The translations under genes were made by a program, and so were the position numbers. This document shows positions 1,053-56,511 of a DNA stretch of 64,000 nucleotides, piece by piece. A model generated the notes under the pieces. It worked only from the letters and a program-made list of their open reading frames with translations, had not been told where the DNA came from and made no database searches. This DNA is from an uncultured Chloroflexia bacterium. Lineage in GTDB: Bacteria > Chloroflexota > Limnocylindria > Limnocylindrales > CSP1-4. How positions within the stretch are numbered: position 1 is the first letter of the stretch; each line of letters starts with the position of its first letter. The stretch covers positions 203,642 through 267,641 of the forward strand of contig CAWIPU010000002.1 in assembly GCA_963838115.1 (NCBI GenBank), read 5' to 3'.

Positions 1053-1841
1053 CTAGCTCCGTGCCGGCTCAAGCTGCTGCTCAAGGTCCATGAGCGGCTG
1101 CTGACTCACCTCGATGAACCCACTGCGTGGTCGGTCGAGGTCGACCACGAGGGTGATGACCGCACCCAGCACCACGATCAGGACAAGGGCACCGATGAAG
1201 CCGCGCCGACCGAGTAGTCCGGCATGGAATCCGACCATGCCGAGCGTCAGGGCTGCGCCGAAGAACAGCAACAGGACGACGGTTTGCGGCACTCGCGCGT
1301 AGACGATCGCGTTGAGTCGTATCTCTCCCATGTCGATCACGTCGTTCAGGGCCGAGATGTAGAGGGCCAGCACCTGGGAGTCGGGCGACTCCCGTGCGAG
1401 CGGCTCGACCAAGGTCCAGAGCTCGGACTGGATCTGGTCCGAGCGGGCGAAGTTGGCCACCAGCTCGGCCTCATCGGGGATGTCGATACGCAACGGGGCG
1501 TACTCCCGCAGCAGCTCCAGCGACTGGTCCGACGCGGGCTGGGGCAGGTAGCTGGCGCGTAGGTAGGCGGTACCGATGGCGTTAGCTTCCAGGAGCACGT
1601 CCTGGCGGCGCGCGTCGAAGCGCTCTGAAGCCATGCCCATCGTCACTGCCAACAGGAAGGCCATGAGGGCGAGGACGGAGCCGACCAGCATCGAGCTGGG
1701 GCCTTCCTTCTCCTCTGGCGTGCGCTTCTGCCACCACGAACCGGCGCGGTAGCCGACCTCGTAGGCAGCGAGTGCGACGATCGCGAACAGCAGGAAGACG
1801 CCTAGCACAGGGAATGGATCGAGCAACTGCTGGTTGTCCAT
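1053..1841 (-). CDS. DUF4239-like membrane protein
   Basis: N-terminal TM helix (VLGVFLLFAIVALAAY) and C-terminal TM pair (VVLLLFFGAALTLGMVGF / IGALVLIVVLGAVITLVV) around a soluble core; start MDNQQ; the N-terminal 53 aa of the track ORF is Arg/Pro-rich junk. Confidence 0.55.
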   Translation of the reverse strand: MDNQQLLDPFPVLGVFLLFAIVALAAYEVGYRAGSWWQKRTPEEKEGPSSMLVGSVLALMAFLLAVTMGMASERFDARRQDVLLEANAIGTAYLRASYLPQPASDQSLELLREYAPLRIDIPDEAELVANFARSDQIQSELWTLVEPLARESPDSQVLALYISALNDVIDMGEIRLNAIVYARVPQTVVLLLFFGAALTLGMVGFHAGLLGRRGFIGALVLIVVLGAVITLVVDLDRPRSGFIEVSQQPLMDLEQQLEPARS

Positions 1842-1987
1842 GGTCCTCAGGTCGGGTGCGGGGCAGGGCCGGTGTGGGTTCGGCCTTCTATGCCGCAAGG
1901 GTATCGCCGCCGGACGTCCGATGCGCGACGAGGTGTGCGACGAAATCGGACTCAGCCAGTCGCGATCACCCCGGCTTGGTGATGGAT

Positions 1988-2066
1988 GCCCTTCCGGCAT
2001 GGGGCCGTATCAGCGAGCCCATCTCCAGTGAGCTGATCCGGATCGAGTGCCTGCGCACCCTCGTCC
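1988..2066 (+). pseudogene. short remnant of a PIN-domain (vapC-like) gene
   Basis: ~75 bp, ~90% identical to 11369-11445 (encodes ...EPISSELIRIECLRTLV); truncated by the hexanucleotide repeat. Confidence 0.4.
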
Positions 2067-2067
2067 C

Positions 2068-2094
2068 AGCACGAGCACGAGCACGAGCACGAGC
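2068..2094. repeat. (ACGAGC)n hexanucleotide microsatellite, 4.5 units
   Basis: cagcacgagcacgagcacgagcacgagcatc read directly; translates as STSTSTSTS in the extended vapB frame. Confidence 0.8.
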
Positions 2095-2121
2095 ATCAAG
2101 ATGCTACGGCTTGGTGCTATG

Positions 2122-2385
2122 ATGCCAAGGATGAGGACGACGATCAGGATAGACGACGAGTTGTATCGCCGGGTAAGGCGCGCCGCCGACCAGTCGGATC
2201 GGACCATCGGTCAAGTCATCGAGGATGCCGTCCAGATGGCTCTGCGACCCTCAATGAACGAAGGGCCGATCGCGGATCTGCCGGTCTACGGGGGGAGCGG
2301 TCTCATGCCCGGGGTCGACCTGTCATCCAACCGGTCGATCGCTGAGGCGATGGACGATGGCGTCTCGGCCGATGCGCTGCGTTGA
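2122..2385 (+). CDS. vapB: type II antitoxin, VapB family (ribbon-helix-helix-like)
   Basis: MPRMRTTIRIDDELYRRVRRAA... paralogous to 26130-26396 (MPSMRTTLTLESDVARLIDEAV); overlaps downstream PIN toxin; alternative ATGs at 2101/2119. Confidence 0.6.
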   Translation: MPRMRTTIRIDDELYRRVRRAADQSDRTIGQVIEDAVQMALRPSMNEGPIADLPVYGGSGLMPGVDLSSNRSIAEAMDDGVSADALR

Positions 2386-2809
2386 CGTCAACGTGCTCGT
2401 GTACGCACACCGGCCCGAGAGTCAGGACCACGAGCGCTATCGAGGATGGCTGGAACGCGTCCGACGTGACGACGAGCCACTCGCACTGTCGGGTCTTGTC
2501 CTGTCCGGATTCATGAGGGTCGTGACCAGCCACAAGGTCTTCCGGGAGCCGACACCCTTGGCGACGGCGGTCGAGTTCGTCCAGGCACTACAGTCGTCGC
2601 CGAACACCGTGTCGGTGAGCCCAGGAGACCGACACTGGCGCATCTTCCTCGACCTGTGTGGCGAGATCGATGCTCGAGGCAATGACATCCCGGACGCGTA
2701 CCACGCGGCGATCGCGGTCGAGAACGGCGCCACGTGGTACAGCGCCGATCGGGGGTTCGCCCGGTTTCGGAGTCTTCGCTGGTCCCACCCGCTCGCGGAT
2801 CCCCTGTAG
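2372..2809 (+). CDS. vapC: PIN-domain toxin, VapC family
   Basis: MRCVDVNVLVYA (first acidic residue) ... DAYHAAIAVENGATWYSADRGFARF typical PIN C-terminus; 14-nt overlap with vapB. Confidence 0.7.
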   Translation: MRCVDVNVLVYAHRPESQDHERYRGWLERVRRDDEPLALSGLVLSGFMRVVTSHKVFREPTPLATAVEFVQALQSSPNTVSVSPGDRHWRIFLDLCGEIDARGNDIPDAYHAAIAVENGATWYSADRGFARFRSLRWSHPLADPL

Positions 2810-3060
2810 AGCCGCGGCATCTCGTTCAGGGGCCGAGGACCATCGTTGGTCGCCAGACGCGGCCGGACGAGAGGTTCTCGACGGGCGCCGGGAACTTCGG
2901 TCGCGAGGCCCAGTCGCGCACGAAGTTGGGGGGCAGGACACCGGCGATGGAGGCAGCCGCGCGGGTTCGGCTTCAGGCGCCGCGGAGGACCGTCTGCATG
3001 GCCTTACGCCACGCGCGCATACTTGGCCTGACGCACAGGCCGGCCAACGGAGGAATCAGG

Positions 3061-3930
3061 ATGTCAACACAGCAGCCATCGTTCCGACTCCAGAGTGGAC
3101 ACCGCCGGAGTGCCCTCGTCATCGCCCTCGTGGTCGCCTCCCTGATGATGAGTGCGACGAGCGTGGTGGGGCAGTCTCAGTCGCCGGGGAACGGGGACCC
3201 GGCGGGGGCCGATGCGACCACCGCGATCCCCATCCCACTCACATCGCTCGGTGACGTGACCTCGCTGGAGGCGACCGCCACCTTGAGTGCCACGGGCTCG
3301 ATGAAGGGTGAGGAGATGGCCGGCGACCTGACGGCGCAACTCGTCGCGGATGAGCAGGGCCAATTCCGCATCGACCTCACGGGCGACCTGCTGGGCCCGA
3401 TCGCGACGCAGGTCGGCGGCAAGCTGGTGAAGCTCTTCCGGCCCAAGAGGGTCAGTGTCTACGTCGTCGAGGATGGCAACTACGTGGTCGTCTCGGGGCT
3501 CACCGACCTCTGCATCCGGACGGAGGACACCGCGGCCACCGAGGCCCTCAGCCAGCTCAGCCCGAGGGCGCTGATGACCATCCTGACCGATAGCGACGTG
3601 GCCAACGGGTCCCTCGTGGGGGCCGAGTCGCTGGACGGCGTCGCGGTCGACCACTACGTCATCGATGGGCCGACCTTCCTCGCGGCAGCGCAGGCGAGCA
3701 GCGACCCGACCGTGCAGACTTTCGGCCAAGCACTGCGCGGCGCCAGCGACGCGGACATCTATATCGACACCGAGACGGGCTACCCTGTGCGCTACGAGGG
3801 TGCCTTCAGCGGCGCCTATGAGCCCGTCGGCCTCGATGGCGACTTCAACGTGCGCCTCGACGTGACCAAGATCGGTACGGACAGCACCGTGACCCTGCCG
3901 ACGGCCTGCGCCAAGCCCATCTCGATGTAG
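3061..3930 (+). CDS. secreted hypothetical protein (Sec signal peptide, no lipobox)
   Basis: GGAGGA RBS 6 nt upstream of the ATG at 3061; N-region plus hydrophobic core ALVIALVVASLMMSATSVVG. Confidence 0.6.
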   Translation: MSTQQPSFRLQSGHRRSALVIALVVASLMMSATSVVGQSQSPGNGDPAGADATTAIPIPLTSLGDVTSLEATATLSATGSMKGEEMAGDLTAQLVADEQGQFRIDLTGDLLGPIATQVGGKLVKLFRPKRVSVYVVEDGNYVVVSGLTDLCIRTEDTAATEALSQLSPRALMTILTDSDVANGSLVGAESLDGVAVDHYVIDGPTFLAAAQASSDPTVQTFGQALRGASDADIYIDTETGYPVRYEGAFSGAYEPVGLDGDFNVRLDVTKIGTDSTVTLPTACAKPISM

Positions 3931-4005
3931 CTGGCCGGGCAGGCCCCGGATCCTGGGTACGTTCGCAGTACAGCTTCATCCACGCCCGGAGGCGGACCTC
4001 TGCTT

Positions 4006-4374
4006 GTGCTCTATGACGCCGATTGCGGAATCTGCAGTCGCTCGGCGAGGCTCTTGGATCGGCTGGACTTTGGTCGGCGCCTTCGTCTCATGCCCCTTCA
4101 GGATGCCGACGATATCGCCGACGCCCCGCCCATGGAGGCCCTGCTCGACGCGATCCATGTCCGCGACCGGGACGGACGCTGGAGCGCGGCTGGGGCCGCA
4201 TGCATAAGGATCGCCGAGGAGGTTCCCCTCCTTCGACCGCTGGCTGTCGCCGCTCGGGTGTCGGCGATCAGGATAGGCATCGACCTGATCTACGCGATGG
4301 TCGCCCGCAACCGCCATCGCATCAGCCACCTCCTTGGCGACCAAGCCTGCGCCGTCAGGTCGAGGACTCCGTGA
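4006..4374 (+). CDS. DCC1-like thiol-disulfide oxidoreductase family protein (DUF393)
   Basis: N-terminal LYDADCGICSRSARLLDRLD matches the YDGxCxxC motif of DUF393; GTG start. Confidence 0.6.
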   Translation: MLYDADCGICSRSARLLDRLDFGRRLRLMPLQDADDIADAPPMEALLDAIHVRDRDGRWSAAGAACIRIAEEVPLLRPLAVAARVSAIRIGIDLIYAMVARNRHRISHLLGDQACAVRSRTP

Positions 4375-4798
4375 CACCGACGGACGTCGCAAAGAACGCA
4401 CCGGCCGTGGCGCCGTCCCAAGCGCTATCCGGTTTTCCTCAGCCGTCTGAACGCATCGCAGGCTGCCTGCGTGCTCGGCTGTACGGCTTCTGACGATGCC
4501 CGGAACCGCCGAAGTCACCCTCGACGAGCTCGACGTGGCCTCGACGAGAGCCTTCGCAGGCTCTGGAGGCAGATCGACGAGCAGGGCATCGAGGTGGTGT
4601 AATGCGCAGGCGCAGGCGCACGCGCCGGACTTGCAGCAGACGCAGGAAGCGGGCCCGATCGGGCCGGACACCGATGCTCACGTCTTTGCGCAACGTGGGC
4701 CCGTGCGACACGTCGCGTCTGACGCCCGCACGAGGATGGCCTGCGGTGAGCCCTGATCGTCAGACGTGACCGACCAAGAGCGGAGGAGACGACACCCC

Positions 4799-5209
4799 AT
4801 GTTCAAACCACTCCGAGCGATGCTTGGTGAACCAGAGGGCAGAGTGCTGGTCGCCAGTGCCATCTCAGCGCTCGTCGTGGGCACGATCGCCTACACCATC
4901 CTCGAAGGCTGGTCACCACTCGACTCGCTCTACTTTTCGGTGGTGACGCTGGCCACCGTGGGCTTCGGTGATCTCCATCCCACGACCGACCCCGCCAAGC
5001 TGTTCACCATCGTCTACATCGTTGCTGGCGTCGGCATCCTGGCCGGCTTCGCCTCTGAGCTGACCAAGACCCGGCAGGCGCTTCGTGTGACAGAGCGGCT
5101 CGATACGGTCTCGACCGCTGCCAGGCACATCGAACGCGACGTCGAGGATGTGGTGGGAAACCAGGATCCCCAGCGGCCGCCGAGTGATGGACCACCGATC
5201 GATGTCTAG
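4799..5209 (+). CDS. two-TM potassium channel family protein (Ion_trans_2)
   Basis: selectivity filter TLATVGFGD between two TM helices; GGAGGA RBS ~9 nt upstream of the ATG at 4799. Confidence 0.65.
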   Translation: MFKPLRAMLGEPEGRVLVASAISALVVGTIAYTILEGWSPLDSLYFSVVTLATVGFGDLHPTTDPAKLFTIVYIVAGVGILAGFASELTKTRQALRVTERLDTVSTAARHIERDVEDVVGNQDPQRPPSDGPPIDV

Positions 5210-11307: not shown

Positions 11308-11565
11308 AGGTGTTGGCTGCCTACAGCCAAGGACCGCCTGTCGCGACACCTTCTCGACGAGGCCGACGCCCTTCGGGCATGGGGGTGGATCGCCGAGCCC
11401 ATCTCCAGTGAGCTGATCCGGATCGAATGCCTGCGCACTCTCGTCCGGGTCTACGACCGCATCGGATCCCGGGCAGCGGAACCCTTTCCTTCGCACGTCA
11501 GGACGCTTGACTCGATCCACCTGGCGAGCGCCGTGGAGGCACTCGGATCCGAAGTCATCACCTGA
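11308..11565 (+). pseudogene. PIN-domain toxin remnant (no start codon; ~85 codons)
   Basis: open frame from the stop at 11305 to TGA 11563 encoding ...AEPISSELIRIECLRTLVRVYDRIGSRAAEPFPSHVRTLDSIHLASAVEALGSEVIT; no ATG; not preceded by an antitoxin. Confidence 0.5.
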
Positions 11566-11621
11566 TCGGTCAGGCACACAAGGCTACGCAGTGGCGGAGC
11601 GCCGAAGAGCTCAGGGCTGGC

Positions 11622-11966
11622 TCAGGTGCCGCGGAGAACCTTCTCCATGGCCTTGCCCCGCGCCAACTCGTCGACGAGCTTGTCCAGGTAGCGGATCTTT
11701 TGCATCAACGGGTCTTCGACGTCCTCGACCCGGACCCCGCACACGACGCCGGTGATCAGCGCCGCGTTCGGGTTGAGCTGCGCATCCGCGAAGAAGTCCT
11801 CGAAGTTGCTCTGCTCCGCGAGATGGCGGCGCAACGCCGACTCGTCAAAGCCCGTGAGCCAATCGATCACCTCATCGAGCTCATCGCGGGTCCGCCCCTT
11901 GCGTTCCAGCTTGGCCACGTAGAGGGGGTATACCGAGGCGACCGGGGTCGAGAAGATCTTGCTCAC
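11622..11966 (-). CDS. DUF2200 family protein
   Basis: VSKIFSTPVASVYPLYVAKLERKGRTRDELDEVIDWLTGFDE...EDPLMQKIRYLDKLVDELARGKAMEKV, family-typical; GTG start. Confidence 0.7.
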   Translation of the reverse strand: MSKIFSTPVASVYPLYVAKLERKGRTRDELDEVIDWLTGFDESALRRHLAEQSNFEDFFADAQLNPNAALITGVVCGVRVEDVEDPLMQKIRYLDKLVDELARGKAMEKVLRGT

Positions 11967-12344
11967 GGTTCGGCAGCGTAGCACCACCGGGCCCGGGTAT
12001 CGACCGCGAAGCTCGAAGTGGATGGATACCGGAAGTTGATCCAAGAACTCACGCGAGATGCCGTGGGGCTGCGTCTCGACGCGGCCACGGTGCGAGATCG
12101 CGAGCGAGGTTCGCGGCTACGGGGCGAGCGCGCCGATCGGGATCACCGAGACGCCGTCCGGTCGCCGGTAGCGGTAGCCCCAGCCAGTGATGACAGCGAG
12201 GGCTGCAGGCGCCGTCGCGATGGTGGCGTGCTTGACGATGCAGGGGCCGAGGTTCGCGAGAGTCTGATGCCCGGACTCGTGGCTGGGCTATAGTCGCCGC
12301 CGGGACGTCAGGACGTGACCCGGTGTGCCGAGGCGGGAGTGACC

Positions 12345-18891: not shown

Positions 18892-19824
18892 TCACTGGAC
18901 CCACCGTGAAGCGCGCCGCTGGACGAGCGCATACAGGATCATGACGATGGCCACCACGACGATCATCCCCAGTGCCAGCGCCTTGCCCACGTTCGCCTGC
19001 CCCAGGACCACTTCACTCGTCAGAGCGCCGCGGATCCGCAACGGCACGATGGGGCTGCCCTGGCTCACCAGCGCCGCCGCGGTCGCGTAGGCGGAGAAAG
19101 CATTCGCGAAGAGCAATAGCAGGGATCCAAGAAAGCTCGGGGCGAGGATCGGCCCACCGACGTGGCGCCAGTATCGCCACTCGGATCCCCCCAGAGTCTT
19201 GGACGCTTCCCACCATTCCCGGCGCAGTCCGTCGAGCGCGGGCAGGAAGATGATGACCATGAGGGGGATCTGGAAGTACGTGTACACGACCGCAAGGCCA
19301 GTCATCCCGTAGATCCATTGGCCTCCCAGGACGTCCAGGCCGACCACCTCACGCATGAACATCGTGGCGATGCCGTTGAAGCCGAAGGTGGCCAGGAAGG
19401 CAAATGCCAGCATGACGCCGCCGAACTGCGCCATGACCGCGCAGGCTGAGATGACGTTGCGTCGAAGCCAGCTGCCAGGTTCGGAGTCGACCAACGCCCA
19501 GGCGAGAAGGCCCCCCAACGTGGCGCCGATGATGGCCGTCTCGGCCGAGAGGGTGATGGAGCGGACGAACGCGTCGCGGAGCGTCTGGCCCCTGAGGACC
19601 GTGATGATGTTCTGCAGCGTCGGTGTACCGTCGTCCGCCTGGAATGCCCCGATGACGACGATCGCCGTCGGGACAAGCATGAAGAGCGTGACGTACGTGA
19701 CGAACGGGACGACCGCAAGATAGTCGCGAATGCGACGCAATCGAAGGGAGCCGGCCCCACGTGGCGTGGGGCCGGCTCCCTCGGCGTCATTCGAGCCGGG
19801 CCTGGCCGCTGCGACCTCGGTCAC
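18892..19824 (-). CDS. ABC transporter permease (PotB-like)
   Basis: polytopic; EAA loop WEASKTLGGSEWRYWRHV. Confidence 0.8.
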   Translation of the reverse strand: MTEVAAARPGSNDAEGAGPTPRGAGSLRLRRIRDYLAVVPFVTYVTLFMLVPTAIVVIGAFQADDGTPTLQNIITVLRGQTLRDAFVRSITLSAETAIIGATLGGLLAWALVDSEPGSWLRRNVISACAVMAQFGGVMLAFAFLATFGFNGIATMFMREVVGLDVLGGQWIYGMTGLAVVYTYFQIPLMVIIFLPALDGLRREWWEASKTLGGSEWRYWRHVGGPILAPSFLGSLLLLFANAFSAYATAAALVSQGSPIVPLRIRGALTSEVVLGQANVGKALALGMIVVVAIVMILYALVQRRASRWVQ

Positions 19825-25111: not shown

Positions 25112-25912
25112 TCAGCAGCAGTCCGCGCCGCCGCAGCAGCGCTGACCGGTCGCGACGCTGTCGACAGACCGGGCGGCCGGCGCGGCATCGCTGCGCTTGG
25201 TGGCCCGGACGATGGCGCCGTGCATGCCGTCGGCGACGTCATGCGTGGCGGTGACGCTCACATCCTCGAGACCGACATCCCGGAGCCCGCGCTCGAACTC
25301 TTCGAACGACAGGGCGCCGGCGATGCAGCCGACATAGCTGCCCCGCTCCGCGCGCTGCTCCGAAGTGAGGCCGTCGTCGGCGACGATGTCGGTGATGCCC
25401 ACCCGGCCGCCCGGCCGCAGCACCCGGGCGATCTCCCGGAACACCGCCGTCTTATCCGCGGCGAGGTTAACGACGCAGTTGCTGATGACGACGTCGATCG
25501 AGTCGGCCGGCAGCGGGATGGCCTCGATGTGACCCTTGAGCAGCACGATGTTGGTCACGCCTGACTCGGCGATATTGCGCGCCGCGAGCGCCAGCATCTC
25601 ATCGGTCATGTCCAGGCCGAACACGCGTCCGGTGGGTCCCACCCGTTTCGCGGAGAGCAGCACGTCGATGCCGCCGCCGGAGCCGAGGTCGAGCACCTGC
25701 TCCCCCTCGTGGAGGGCAGCGACCGCGATGGGGTTGCCGCAGCCGAGCGACGCGAAGACCGCGGCATCGGGCAGCTCGTCGCGCTCAAGGGCGCTGTACA
25801 GCCCGGCGCCGATACCCTCATCGGGGGCGCAGCAGGTGGCGGGCGCGTTGAGGACGCTGATCGCCGAGACGGCGTAGCGGTCCCGGACGAGCTCGTGGAT
25901 CTGGTCGGTCAT
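25112..25912 (-). CDS. arsM: arsenite S-adenosylmethionine methyltransferase
   Basis: [14 protein letters not shown], Cys pair [12 protein letters not shown] motif [35 protein letters not shown], conserved VGCIAGAL Cys, Cys-rich tail [10 protein letters not shown]. Confidence 0.8.
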
Positions 25913-25940
25913 GGCGATGGACTCCCGGTGGCGAGGACGT

Positions 25941-25978: not shown

Positions 25979-26129
25979 CCAACACGATGCTGCGCTCGAC
26001 CGACCCCGACGTGCTCCTGCTCCAGGCTGACGGGGGTCCCTGCTCGACCGCTGGGCCGTCGAGGAGCCTGCGGTCGGTGCGGCTCCGATAGCGCGAAGCA
26101 TCTTGACCTCCATCCGAAAGAGCATCATG

Positions 26130-26396
26130 ATGCCATCCATGCGAACCACCTTGACGCTCGAGAGCGATGTCGCACGCCTCATCGACGAAGCGGTCCACCG
26201 GGAACGGCGCCCCATGAAACAGGTCGTCAACGACGCGCTCCGACGTGCCCTCACCCCGGAGACACAGAGGGAAAGGGTCACACTGTCGCCCCACGAGTCG
26301 GCCATCCGTACGGGCTTCGACCTTGCCAAGCTCAACCAGCTCGCCGATGACCTGGATGACGAAGCCATCCTCGACGCACCTCGACGCACAGAGTGA
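26130..26396 (+). CDS. vapB: type II antitoxin, VapB family
   Basis: MPSMRTTLTLESDVARLIDEAV... paralogue of 2122-2385; ATGA overlap with the downstream PIN gene. Confidence 0.6.
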   Translation: MPSMRTTLTLESDVARLIDEAVHRERRPMKQVVNDALRRALTPETQRERVTLSPHESAIRTGFDLAKLNQLADDLDDEAILDAPRRTE

Positions 26397-26851
26397 TCAT
26401 CCCCGACGTCAACTTGCTGCTCTATGCGACGGTCACCGGGTTCCCGAAGCACGAGCCCGCACGGGCATGGCTGGAAGATGCCCTCAACGGGTCGGACCTG
26501 CTCGGCCTGACCTCACCAGCCGTGTTCGGTTACATCCGGATCGCGACCAGCGGGCGCGTGTTCGAGTCGGCCATGTCGGTCGTCGACGCGACCGATCGCG
26601 TGCGGCTCTGGCTGGCCCAGCCGAATGTCAGGTTCGTCGTGCCCGGTCCGAGTCACCTTGAGATCGCATTCGGACTCCTGGAGGCGATCGGGACCGGGGC
26701 GAACCTGACGACCGATGTCCAGCTCGCGGCACACGCCATCGAGCTGAATGCCGAGCTCTTCTCCAACGACACCGACTTCGGTCGCTTCACCGGCCTGCGC
26801 TGGATCGACCCGCTGAGACACTCTCGGTCGCCAGGCGGCCCGTCGAGCTGA
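26393..26851 (+). CDS. vapC: PIN-domain toxin, VapC family
   Basis: MIIPDVNLLLYA ... NDTDFGRF; paralogous to 2372-2809. Confidence 0.7.
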   Translation: MIIPDVNLLLYATVTGFPKHEPARAWLEDALNGSDLLGLTSPAVFGYIRIATSGRVFESAMSVVDATDRVRLWLAQPNVRFVVPGPSHLEIAFGLLEAIGTGANLTTDVQLAAHAIELNAELFSNDTDFGRFTGLRWIDPLRHSRSPGGPSS

Positions 26852-27024
26852 AGCCGCAGGGTCGAGCAGAGACCCGCCCTTCGCGGGAAGGGTGCTCGGC
26901 ACGTACGAAGCAGATGGTGCCATTCGCCATGAGAGAGTGGTCGGGGCGAGAGGAGTTGGGACGACGATTTCGATGTCGCGGGGTCCCGAGATCGGCGAGG
27001 CCGCCATGGCCCGCACCAAAGAGG

Positions 27025-27222
27025 TCAGGCTCGACCCCGCAGAGCGTCGAAGGGGTTCTCGAGCACGACACCTGCGATCCGACGCCCTGCCTGCAGATCT
27101 TCGCTCAGAAGTCGCACGGCGCCCGCCCGTCGGGCAGCCTCGATGATCAGGGCATCCCAGAACGAGAAGGTTTCGCGGCCGTGCGTGCGCTGCTCGAGCT
27201 GCAACACGCGCAAGGGGTTGAG
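27025..27222 (-). pseudogene. C-terminal half of a PIN-domain toxin (N-terminal half missing)
   Basis: ...ETFSFWDALIIEAARRAGAVRLLSEDLQAGRRIAGVVLENPF typical PIN C-terminus; frame opens only 3 codons upstream of a TTG; no partner antitoxin. Confidence 0.5.
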
Positions 27223-27407
27223 TCAGCGGCGGCGGGGAGCGGGCCGGCGAGGTCGGTCTCGTCCTTGGCCATGTGCGGCCTGTCAGCCGGTGCCCGACCG
27301 ACCGACGAGCGATGGTGGCAGCACGCCGCGACCGGCGCCCCTATCCTGTCTGACACCATCGCCGGATGTCGCGGCTCGCGGTTCGCTGGTGGCACCGGGA
27401 GGGCCTG

Positions 27408-28916
27408 ATGGTCATCGAAGAGGAGCCGGCTCGACGCACGGACTCCCCCGACGTCGGACCGGAGGAGCGCCTGCGCATCGCCAAGCTCGCGGCCGGGATC
27501 GGCATCCACGAGTATCGGCCCGGGACCGGCGAGCTCCTGTGGGACGAGCGCGTGCGCGAGTTGTGGGGCATCGGACCCGACGAGGTGGTCACGTACGAGT
27601 TCTTCATGTCCGGGCTCCACCCCGACGACCGCGCGCCGACACAGGCGGTGGTGGACGCCGCGCTCGATCCAGCCGGCGATGGCGTCTACCGCGCCACCTA
27701 CCGCGTCATCTGCCGGGCCGACGGCGTGACCCGCTGGGTCGCGGCCACCGGGCACGTGACGTTCGAGGACGGCCGCCCTGTCCGCCTCGTCGGCACCGTC
27801 GCTGACATCTCCGAGTCAAAGCGCGTCGAAGCGGATCTGCGCGAGAGCGAGGACCGCTTCCGCTCCATGGCCGATGGGACGCCGGTGATGATCTGGGTGA
27901 CCGATCCGGTCGGGCGGCTCGAGTACGTCAACCGCGCCTATGAGGACTTCTTCGGCATCTCGATGGAGCAGATCCGCTCGGATGGCTGGCAGGCACTCGT
28001 CCATCCCGAGGACCGTGAGGCCTACGTGACGCCCTTCCTCACCGCGCTGCGGGAGCGGACTCCCTATCAAGCGCAGGGCCGGGTCGCGCGGGCCGACGGC
28101 GCGTGGCGCTGGATCGAGTCGTTCGGGGCGCCCCGCTTCGCACCCGACGGCACCTTCCTGGGGATGGCCGGCAGCAGCCCCGATATCAGCGAGCGCAAGG
28201 AGACCGAGGCCCGACTCCGTGATGCGCTGGCCGCTAAGGACCAGTTCGTCGGCTTCATCTCGCATGAGTTGCGGACTCCCATGACCGTCATCCTCGGCAT
28301 GAGCCAGCTCCTCGCCACCGCGGCGGTGCCGGAAGAACGGCGGCGCGAGCTCGCGGCCGACATCTACGCGAGCGCGCAGGAGCAAGATGCGATGATCGAG
28401 TCGCTGCTCGTCCTCGCGCAGCTGGGGCGTTCAGCCGAGCAGATGGAAGGGGAGCCGCTGCTCCTGGCTCGCCTGGTGGCCGACCTGCTCGAGCGCCACC
28501 ATACCGAGGACACTGCGCATGACTATCGGCTCGACCTCCGCAGCCCGGGCGCTATCGTCATGTGCCACCCGCCCTGGATCGAGCGGGTGCTGGCCAACTT
28601 GCTGAGCAACGCCGCCAAGTACTCGCCCAAGGGAGGCTCGATCACCGCCGTCGTCGAGGCCGTCGATGGCGAGGCGCGTGTCTCGGTCCTCGACGAGGGA
28701 CAGGGCATCGCACCCGACGAGGCCGAGCGGCTATTCGAGCCCTTCTACCGGAGTCCGTCGGTGCGGGAGTCGGTGCCGGGGGCCGGTCTCGGGCTCACCG
28801 TCTGCCAGCGCATCGTGGAGTCGATGGCCGGTCGCATGTGGGCGTACCCGGCCCCGAGCGGCGGGGCGGAGTTCGGCTTCGCTCTCCCGAGCGTGGGCGA
28901 GGACCTCACCGACTGA
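27408..28916 (+). CDS. PAS-domain sensor histidine kinase (cytoplasmic, orphan)
   Basis: two PAS-like segments, HisKA FISHELRTPM, HATPase NLLSNAAKY / GAGLGL; GGGAGGG RBS; no adjacent response regulator. Confidence 0.8.
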   Translation: MVIEEEPARRTDSPDVGPEERLRIAKLAAGIGIHEYRPGTGELLWDERVRELWGIGPDEVVTYEFFMSGLHPDDRAPTQAVVDAALDPAGDGVYRATYRVICRADGVTRWVAATGHVTFEDGRPVRLVGTVADISESKRVEADLRESEDRFRSMADGTPVMIWVTDPVGRLEYVNRAYEDFFGISMEQIRSDGWQALVHPEDREAYVTPFLTALRERTPYQAQGRVARADGAWRWIESFGAPRFAPDGTFLGMAGSSPDISERKETEARLRDALAAKDQFVGFISHELRTPMTVILGMSQLLATAAVPEERRRELAADIYASAQEQDAMIESLLVLAQLGRSAEQMEGEPLLLARLVADLLERHHTEDTAHDYRLDLRSPGAIVMCHPPWIERVLANLLSNAAKYSPKGGSITAVVEAVDGEARVSVLDEGQGIAPDEAERLFEPFYRSPSVRESVPGAGLGLTVCQRIVESMAGRMWAYPAPSGGAEFGFALPSVGEDLTD

Positions 28917-55299: not shown

Positions 55300-55644
55300 T
55301 GGTCGGGAGCCCCGCGTTCCGGAAATGACGTCTGGACGGTAGGCCCGCCCGTCCCAGCAGGGGGGCCTACCCTGGGGAGAGATGCTGCACGTCCGACCTG
55401 CAGGGGTCAGCCGGGTCGCTACGGACCGCGCTACGGAACCGGCCGTTCCGTGTCCGGATGCCCGACGACGTGGTCGTGCCGAGCCGCCGGCCACCACTCC
55501 GGCGCATCCCGAGGTCGAGCGTAGTACGAGCGGATGGTCGCTCCGTACCGTCGTACGGGGGCCCACCTGACATGGGTCCTGCCATGCTCACGGTACCGAG
55601 CGATCAGATCATCCTCATCGACCCACCGGAAGGAACGCCCCTCC

Positions 55645-56511
55645 ATGCCTGATCGTCGCTCGTCGCTTCGCACTCGATCCCTCGCCGCCTCCATGACGGT
55701 GGTCGTGGCCCTCGCCGGTCTGGCCGTCGCATCCCCGGGGGTCGCGGCAGCAGCCACACCCAAGTGCCTGGGCAAGACGGCCACCGTCGTCGGCACCAAG
55801 AAGTCCGAGGTCATCCGCGGGACCAAGCGCGCCGACGTCATCGTGGCCAAGGGCGGGAACGACACCATCATCGCCGGCGGCGGCAACGACCTCATCTGCG
55901 CCGGTAGCGGAGCCGACGTCGTGCGCGCCGGGGGCGGCCGGGACACGGTGGTCGCCGGGACCGGCGCTGACGTGCTCGTCGGTGCCGCCGGGCCCGACGT
56001 CTTGCGCGGCAACGCCGGGAACGACGTCATCAAGGGCGGCCCCGGTGACGACGCCATCGACGGCGGCCTGGGCTTCGATACCTGCGATCAGGGCCTTGGT
56101 AGCGGCACTATGGTCAACTGCGAGAAGCTCGAGGCGCCGGTCGACCCGCCCGATCCCCCTGCGCCCGTCGCGCGGGCCGATCTGTCGGTGGCCGTAGTGG
56201 GGCCCAAGAAGGCCAGGTCCGGCCCGCTGACCTTCACGGTCCGGGTCAGGAACCTGGGGCCTGATGCGAGCGGCTACGTGCTGGACCTGGCCTACAGCAG
56301 CCGGCGCGCGACATGCACGGCGCCCGACTGGACGGGCAAGCAGACGGAGAGCTCCCTGGGTGCCGGGACGAGCCGCGCGGACGACTACGTCGTCACCTGT
56401 ACGAAGCGACGGAACGGCGCTTCGGTCACGGTGAAGGCCACCGTCGCCGCGAGCATCGCCGATCCGAATACCGCGAACGACGCGGCCTCGGCACGCACTG
56501 GACTGCGCTGA
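55645..56511 (+). CDS. secreted calcium-binding (hemolysin-type repeat) protein with DUF11-like C-terminal domain
   Basis: signal peptide; tandem GGNDTIIAGGGNDLICAGSGADVVRAGGGRDTVVAGTGADVL repeats; C-terminal LSVAVVGPKKARSGPLTFTVRVRNLGPDAS. Confidence 0.65.
   Translation: MPDRRSSLRTRSLAASMTVVVALAGLAVASPGVAAAATPKCLGKTATVVGTKKSEVIRGTKRADVIVAKGGNDTIIAGGGNDLICAGSGADVVRAGGGRDTVVAGTGADVLVGAAGPDVLRGNAGNDVIKGGPGDDAIDGGLGFDTCDQGLGSGTMVNCEKLEAPVDPPDPPAPVARADLSVAVVGPKKARSGPLTFTVRVRNLGPDASGYVLDLAYSSRRATCTAPDWTGKQTESSLGAGTSRADDYVVTCTKRRNGASVTVKATVAASIADPNTANDAASARTGLR

Follow-up and report, generated by a model that had tools for sequence, protein, structure and literature searches.

The subject of this report is vapBC-1, a toxin-antitoxin (TA) operon found in a 64,000-nucleotide stretch of contig CAWIPU010000002.1 (hereafter the window, to which coordinates refer unless another sequence is named), together with a perfect hexanucleotide simple sequence repeat (SSR) that abuts the control region of this operon. 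According to its sequence, vapBC-1 is an intact and conventional type II TA operon of the VapBC43 type. It is rather likely that this operon is an autoregulated cassette with a leaderless promoter, and that the SSR is private to its lineage, was generated by slippage at or after a deletion and is probably neutral. Because neither the predicted transcript nor the coding sequence includes it, the SSR is most likely a lineage-private scar, neutral or at most mildly modulatory, and not a phase-variation switch.

The vapBC-1 operon

The antitoxin gene vapB-1 (2131–2385, + strand) encodes a putative ribbon-helix-helix (RHH) protein of 84 aa that starts with MRTT (PF01402, E 1.2e-5). RHH_1 matches residues 6–42 of an 88-aa VapB-1 query started at 2119, and the C-terminus of the protein matches the VapB43 peptide of PDB entry 7VWO (E 1.8e-3). 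vapB-1 overlaps by 14 nt (2372–2385) the toxin gene vapC-1 (2372–2809, + strand), which encodes a putative PIN ribonuclease of 145 aa, a length also found in its relatives. VapC-1 scores well above the cut-off of TIGR00028 (142 bits versus 73.6; E 1.2e-41) and matches PF01850 (E 1e-12). Its residues 1–141 align end to end with VapC43 from Mycobacterium tuberculosis (PDB 7VWO, E 2e-51), and this alignment indicates that the acidic PIN residues are conserved (Asp at position 5 within VDVN, DA and SADRGF motifs). The operon has both the PIN toxin and the upstream antitoxin that characterize type II TA systems of the TIGR00028/VapBC43 type.

In those relatives of vapBC-1 that occur in unrelated genomic contexts, DNA homology with the window is confined to positions 2090/2091 to ~2795. 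As this interval corresponds to the two genes and a 40-bp control region, these behave as a cassette of ~735 bp, in which vapBC-1 would move together with its own ~40-bp promoter/operator. Inspection of the alignments by eye revealed no convincing terminal repeats at the ends of the cassette. The relatives belong to Chloroflexia and Limnocylindrales metagenome-assembled genomes (MAGs), and the host is probably an uncultured Chloroflexota. No record identical to VapC-1 (with either of two candidate starts), to VapB-1 or to the neighbouring bestrophin-like protein was found in the collections; the best relative is 90–94% identical at the amino-acid level.

The start of vapB and its control region

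A vapB start was placed in 36 of the related loci retrieved on the basis of VapC similarity, and 75 nt of 5' sequence were inspected in each case. All of the homologues with a placeable start (36/36) begin with MRT(T/L). Most low-GC homologues have a purine-rich match to a GGAG-type Shine-Dalgarno sequence just 5' of the ATG. By contrast, the high-GC relatives (Chloroflexia MAGs, a Euzebyaceae MAG, Mycolicibacterium and a Bryobacterales genome) lack a Shine-Dalgarno sequence and share a common layout: GAGCAyCAAGATGC, 7 nt, TGATGCTATGATGC, 4–5 nt and ATG. The Mycolicibacterium (L011) and Bryobacterales (L033) loci carry this promoter/operator layout ~40 nt 5' of vapB. Proteobacterial homologues of the same VapB, which served as a contrast set (L008–L032), have an AT-rich upstream region with, in most cases, a GGAG-type Shine-Dalgarno sequence.

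In the window, the promoter/operator block conserved in the 10 closest relatives spans positions 2091–2126 (+ strand). In these relatives, the G of GAGCA is the exact point at which upstream conservation sets in; from there it continues as far as the ATG, sequence further upstream being at background level. The block includes a distal palindrome, GAGCATCAAGATGCT (2091–2105, with its core GCATCAAGATGC at 2093–2104), and a proximal motif, GGTGCTATGATGCC (2113–2126), within which lies the extended -10-like sequence TGCTATGAT (2115–2123). TGnTATGAT, located inside TGATGCTATGATGC, ends 7–8 nt before the ATG, a geometry that would be that of a leaderless extended -10 promoter. The putative promoter role of 2091–2126 is proposed by analogy with the leaderless TA promoters of mycobacteria: in M. 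tuberculosis, 32 of the 37 TA pairs whose primary start site has been mapped lack a leader, the -10 motif reads TANNNT, and promoters with a TGN extended -10 rank among the strongest (PMC3898074). Within the 64 kb, there are only two copies of the palindrome GCATC-WW-GATGC (2093–2104 and 26122–26133, versus 0.01 expected), each being located just 5' of one of the two vapB genes of the window. These palindromes may be VapB operators that overlap the promoter, and they provide a candidate operator for this VapB family. Taken as a whole, the vapBC genes and their control region seem to move together across high-GC phyla.

The conserved block also bears on the start of the antitoxins. The earlier note on this DNA, made from the letters of the window, had described an N-terminus MP(R/S)MRTT shared by the two VapB proteins. 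The MRTT start proves to be family-wide, but the preceding MMP(R/S) is most likely non-coding promoter/operator DNA. The codons "ATG ATG CCn" sit within the conserved TGnTATGAT/operator motif and, as their frame differs from that of MRTT in seven of the 10 close relatives, they are almost certainly not translated. The real vapB starts are most likely located at 2131 and 26139 (MRTT) rather than at the upstream MMP(R/S).

A promoter reading of the opposite strand has also to be considered. The SSR could belong to the 5' leader of a divergent transcript of the bestrophin-like gene (1053–1844, - strand), which would be initiated from TTGGCA-16-TAGCAT (2128 to 2101), the sole consensus promoter match in 1800–3100 (0.2 expected). 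However, both hexamers come from the vapB-1 operator region, read on its complementary strand, and are not kept promoter-like in the relatives, and the leader would be ~250 nt long and would cross a pseudogene. This minus-strand sigma-70 match, being built from the reverse complement of the operator, was treated as fortuitous, and such a leader appears scarcely plausible.

The hexanucleotide repeat

The SSR occupies positions 2068–2095 (no strand assigned) and was found by TRF to be perfect (period 6, 4.7 copies, 100% match), in agreement with the hexamer repeat that the earlier note had placed beside vapB-1. It is the sole perfect repeat of the 64-kb window with a unit of 5–9 nt and at least three copies. 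The longest perfect period-6 run obtained in 300 dinucleotide-Markov simulations of the sequence was 20 bp, versus 28 bp observed, which indicates that the SSR is real and not due to chance. Read in the register of the cassette, the sequence is cAGCAC, then three GAGCAC, then GAGCAT-CAAGATGCT. Comparison of this register with that of the relatives indicates that the SSR consists of four additional copies, in tandem, of the hexamer with which the conserved left arm of the operator begins; this hexamer is GAGCAC, i.e., the SSR unit itself, in seven of the 10 close relatives. Relative to A2131, the predicted leaderless start, the SSR extends from -63 to -36 and the whole conserved promoter/operator block lies 3' of it. 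The SSR is predicted to be outside the transcript as well as outside the real vapB-1 open reading frame (ORF).

None of the 47 related vapBC loci that were fetched has tandem units, even as few as two, in the vicinity of vapB. A scan of metagenome contigs for at least two units followed by the operator (GAGCACGAGCAYCAAGATGC) gave 18 matches, all of them unrelated and devoid of any vapBC cassette motif downstream; as the vapB operator follows none of them, they were considered as chance matches.

The identity between the SSR unit and the operator arm raises the possibility that the extra GAGCAC units are functional half-sites for VapB-1 or VapBC-1, which, by extending or titrating the binding of the repressor, would reset the level or the cooperativity of autoregulation as a fixed variant, without any switch. 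RHH antitoxins bind repeated sites within their own promoters, and the units, which are identical to the left arm of the distal palindrome of seven of the 10 relatives, are contiguous with it and in register. However, with a spacing of 6 bp, neighbouring units face different sides of the helix, the units lack a matching right arm, none of the relatives examined has such an array, and the location of the tract at a deletion junction (see below) fits a mutational by-product. Such an operator-arm array is therefore considered unlikely. A mutable form of it is very unlikely: slippage would then vary the number of half-sites and would generate heritable differences of TA autoregulation between cells, for example in the threshold of toxin activation. 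If true, this mutable operator array would be a contingency-type promoter on a TA module in an environmental Chloroflexota bacterium.

The earlier note had viewed the SSR as a classic contingency-locus layout, in which slippage of the hexamer tract would often change the number of units and reversibly alter the expression of vapBC-1. A tract beyond chance, as expected for such a locus, is indeed found here (28 bp, 4.7 units), and the perfect SSR directly adjoins the promoter/operator. Known phase-variation switches use longer tracts, whereas this one is short, and as its unit of 6 nt is a multiple of 3, a change in length would cause no frameshift. The tract is predicted to be outside both the transcript and the real ORF. 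It is located 5' of the conserved block, hence not between promoter hexamers or conserved operators (as far as the predicted position of the promoter is correct), and nothing is conserved on its 5' side whose spacing could be changed. It is moreover private to this sequence, being absent from the 47 related loci and from the metagenome scan. In nadA of Neisseria meningitidis, an SSR upstream of the core promoter modulates expression by respacing repressor operators, but this precedent needs the tract to be flanked by operators on its two sides (PMC2791445). A survey of Haemophilus influenzae revealed no link between hexanucleotide SSRs and phase variation (PMC2651432). On balance, the layout that had been claimed is not supported, and a contingency locus is quite improbable.

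Another possibility is that the SSR is coding. The earlier note had proposed that read-through would add an STSTSTSTS extension to the antitoxin. The corresponding mechanical ORF does exist (2047–2385), being open from a GTG at 2047 and in frame with vapB, but it is most likely untranslated and no homologue supports it. The homologues with a placeable start all begin with MRT(T/L), several of them after a clear Shine-Dalgarno sequence, and beyond -40 the upstream sequences of the relatives are unrelated. Two other ORFs could be live and read the repeat, 1772–2122 (+ strand) and 2010–2207 (- strand, as (LV)n); the former is a dead PIN frame running into the repeat. A coding role of the SSR, in (ST)n or any other form, is barely credible.

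Some points nevertheless weigh against a neutral scar beside a leaderless, autoregulated promoter. The SSR units are exact copies of the operator arm and abut the operator, so that an effect on the binding of VapB or VapBC is possible. The 28-bp tract is perfect, with zero decayed units, which suggests a recent origin, or else ongoing slippage or selection. The promoter/operator assignment rests on conservation and analogy, and a simple sigma-70 consensus scan gave no + strand site in the vapB-1 promoter region. Finally, no sequence of the same species is present in the collections searched, so the SSR was compared only with the loci of relatives.

Remnants of PIN genes and history of the locus

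The earlier note had pointed out three PIN remnants devoid of antitoxin. All three are indeed PIN remnants, as established from the PIN gene of a syntenic relative (L044) and from the relatives of stub 3, and no antitoxin ORF was found beside any of them. As direct searches of Pfam and NCBIfam with stubs 1 and 3 gave no match, the identity of these two was taken from their relatives. Homology to an intact PIN gene, lesions and lack of a cognate antitoxin, as expected for pseudogenes, were found for the stubs.

Stub 1 (1975–2066, + strand) is an internal fragment of a PIN toxin pseudogene of the Phd-partnered type. It is 86% identical to positions 2298–2390 of L044, within the PIN gene; a weak similarity at the protein level begins at ~1940, and the homology ends at 2066, one base 5' of the SSR. 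Stub 2 (11308–11565, + strand) was recognized as a PIN remnant by three-frame translation, alignment with the L044 PIN gene and a weak match to PF01850. It is not a stub in the strict sense, as the earlier note had it, but a pseudogene decayed from start to stop. Its lesions are a frameshift after ~15 codons, the replacement of the first catalytic Asp by Ala, and two deletions, one of ~81 bp that is common with stub 1 and another that removes the C-terminal acidic motif. At the nucleotide level, both stubs share 85–86% identity with the PIN gene of L044. The block of ~75 bp at ~90% identity previously noticed between the first two remnants was recovered as 82 bp at 89% (1985–2066 versus 11365–11446, E 2.5e-25). 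A weak tblastn match of stub 2 at 19276–19395, antisense inside an ATP-binding cassette (ABC) permease gene, was rejected as spurious.

The relative L044 is a contig of 706 kb that encodes a VapC with 88% identity to VapC-1. Its gene order is Phd/YefM (PF02604, E 1.4e-9), an overlapping PIN gene of 136 aa, vapB, vapC, a convergent DUF2200 gene, which is intact beside vapC, and a downstream gene common with the window. In blastn comparisons, L044 2298–2390 corresponds to stub 1 (1975–2066), 2736–3468 to the vapBC cassette (2091–2824), 3479–3515 to a short DUF2200 remnant (2978–3014) and 4157–5099 to the downstream gene (3006–3938). Since L044 keeps a Phd-PIN pair directly 5' of the orthologous vapBC, stub 1 is the leftover of a Phd-partnered PIN gene, and the presence of this pair of genes (Phd/YefM and the 136-aa PIN gene) supports the view of the earlier note that the stubs mark TA turnover. 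No Phd/YefM remnant was found in the window by tblastn with the L044 Phd protein (E < 0.01).

As called, the 136-aa PIN ORF of L044 (2256–2666) has apparently two compensating frameshifts relative to the frame of the stubs. When its middle segment is read in the stub frame, the E value of the PF01850 match improves from 0.04 to 1.7e-8, which confirms that stubs 1 and 2 are PIN remnants. The frameshifts in L044 may be an error of long-read assembly or may reflect real decay.

Compared with L044, locus 1 of the window (stub 1, SSR and vapBC-1) lacks the Phd gene, the 5' end of the PIN gene and most of DUF2200, of which a 44-bp remnant of the 3' end persists (2973–3016, - strand; 84% identity to 11622–11663, E 2.7e-7, and 86% to L044 3479–3515). 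It also lacks ~250 bp extending from the inside of the PIN gene to the edge of the operator. The SSR exactly fills the junction of this deletion: the homology of the stub stops at 2066 and that of the cassette starts at 2090/2091. The ~81-bp deletion found in both stubs (junction CTCG|TCC) occurred between direct repeats, CACCCTCG, that L044 has retained. A deletion of the ~250 bp by microhomology was also considered, as GCATCAAG, which is identical to the core of the operator, is found in the L044 PIN gene 13 nt past the breakpoint of stub 1; the intervening bases fit poorly and this is speculation only.

Locus 2 (11308–12044) is a second, diverged PIN-DUF2200 segment without vapBC. It consists of stub 2 and a convergent intact DUF2200 gene (11622–12044, - strand; PF09966, E 1.6e-50; 87.7% nucleotide identity to that of L044) whose real start is probably near 11966. 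As stubs 1 and 2 share the ~81-bp deletion, the PIN gene was already dead before the duplication of the segment. Comparison of 11566–11621 with L044 2667–3473 indicates that the vapBC cassette and its promoter are cleanly absent between the stop of the PIN gene and DUF2200. Locus 2 could be an empty insertion site or could result from a precise loss of vapBC.

A Candidatus Limnocylindrales MAG (L041, 4001–4284) carries a C-terminal fragment of vapC (90% nucleotide identity to 2693–2824) that runs straight into a 3' fragment of DUF2200 (92.5% to 11621–11767), beside a 503-aa ORF. This comparison was made by blastn, tblastx having given uninterpretable noise. The same locus is decaying there in parallel and independently, in another genome.

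The following history can be proposed. The older locus would have consisted of Phd/YefM, PIN, vapBC and a convergent DUF2200, an arrangement that is still nearly complete in L044. A PIN-DUF2200 segment whose PIN gene was already dead was duplicated, giving rise to locus 2. In locus 1, a deletion of ~250 bp removed the 3' part of the PIN gene and the spacer, and slippage at the deletion junction would have amplified four-fold the hexamer GAGCAC, the outermost of the left arm of the operator. The vapBC-1 mRNA would be leaderless and its synthesis would be repressed by the RHH antitoxin of the operon.

The vapBC-2 operon and other features of the window

As the earlier note had claimed, the window harbours two complete and homologous VapBC pairs (2131–2809 and 26139–26851). 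They are paralogous, with 35% identity between the VapC proteins (E 1e-20) and 32% between the VapB proteins (E 5e-9). vapB-2 (26139–26396, + strand) encodes a putative RHH antitoxin with the family-wide MRTT start (PF01402, E 5e-3, below the curated cut-off); a start at the in-frame ATG at 26127 is possible. The gene overlaps by GTGA the PIN toxin gene vapC-2 (26393–26851, + strand; TIGR00028, E 2.9e-36; VapC43, E 1e-18). The palindrome located just 5' of vapB-2, GCATCATGATGC (26122–26133, + strand), is the candidate operator/-10 motif shared with vapBC-1 and the source of the apparent MMPS codons.

Stub 3 (27037–27177, - strand) represents the C-terminal end (47 codons) of another, unrelated PIN gene and is 77–84% identical to its relatives. 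Among these relatives (P0121–P0125), all of them short proteins, three align with the C-terminal portion of PF01850 (positions 53–113). No upstream continuation of stub 3 was found in any frame. It is convergent with vapC-2, ~185 bp from the stop of the latter, and the enclosing ORF (27025–27213) ends 173 bp away. This region is a second small TA graveyard. vapC-2 and the interval that contains stub 3 (26852–27408) are flanked on one side by a gene for an S-adenosylmethionine (SAM)-dependent methyltransferase (25112–25924, - strand) and on the other by a PAS histidine kinase gene (from ~27366/27408).

Two other repeat-containing regions were observed elsewhere in the window. A 51-bp tandem repeat (2.5 copies, 84% matches) is found at 453–579, close to the beginning of the window, where the sequence appears to be non-coding. 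The ORF 55534–56511, which encodes RTX calcium-binding nonapeptide repeats (PF00353, E 3e-31) and a DUF11 domain, overlaps 27-bp TRF arrays at 55833–56068.

Relation to known systems

The closest characterized system is VapBC43 from M. tuberculosis (7VWO, TIGR00028). The likeness concerns both toxins, VapC-1 more than VapC-2 (E 2e-51 and E 1e-18, respectively), the C-terminal toxin-binding peptide of VapB-1 and the arrangement of a small upstream antitoxin gene that overlaps the toxin gene. The differences are that the host is here probably an uncultured Chloroflexota and that the locus is known from sequence alone. The hexamer SSR that abuts the operator of vapBC-1 is private, being found in no relative examined.

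FitAB from Neisseria gonorrhoeae and the vapBC operons of enteric bacteria are VapBC operons autoregulated by their RHH antitoxins. As in these operons, conserved palindromic or repeated motifs lie over the putative promoter, just 5' of the antitoxin gene, in both modules of the window. Unlike in FitAB and the enteric vapBC, the predicted start is of the leaderless type found in mycobacterial TA modules (PMC3898074) and is not led by a Shine-Dalgarno sequence.

With regard to the SSR, phase variation involving promoter-distal SSRs, made of 7-bp repeats, is said to occur in hmw1A and hmw2A of H. influenzae. The tract of vapBC-1 resembles the (TAAA)n of nadA from N. meningitidis in being a tandem repeat located 5' of the putative core promoter, beside putative repressor operators (PMC2791445). 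However, tracts of the nadA type are located between functional operators or promoter elements, are longer and are demonstrably polymorphic, whereas that of vapBC-1 has only 4.7 units, has nothing conserved on its 5' side and is located at a deletion scar.

The stubs have the features of decayed type II TA modules: they have lost the antitoxin gene and catalytic residues, contain frameshifts and bear internal deletions bounded by short direct repeats. Compared with other orphan PIN pseudogenes, they present nothing unusual, save that two of the remnants derive from one duplicated segment that was already dead.

Significance

In itself, the locus matters little: type II TA systems are already catalogued in very large numbers, and it adds to them two more modules of the VapBC43 type and three dead PIN genes. 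It nevertheless provides a precise operator candidate for this VapB family, namely a ~40-bp promoter/operator of the leaderless type that seems to move with vapBC across high-GC phyla. It also calls for caution in the annotation of gene starts, since conserved "N-terminal" codons (here MMPR/MMPS) can be promoter/operator DNA. Furthermore, the locus can serve as a worked example of the decay of TA modules, in which a dead gene was duplicated, short direct repeats bounded the deletions and an SSR probably arose at a deletion junction. Only if the tract proved to be variable in length and to affect repression would it represent a new way to diversify the expression of TA modules.

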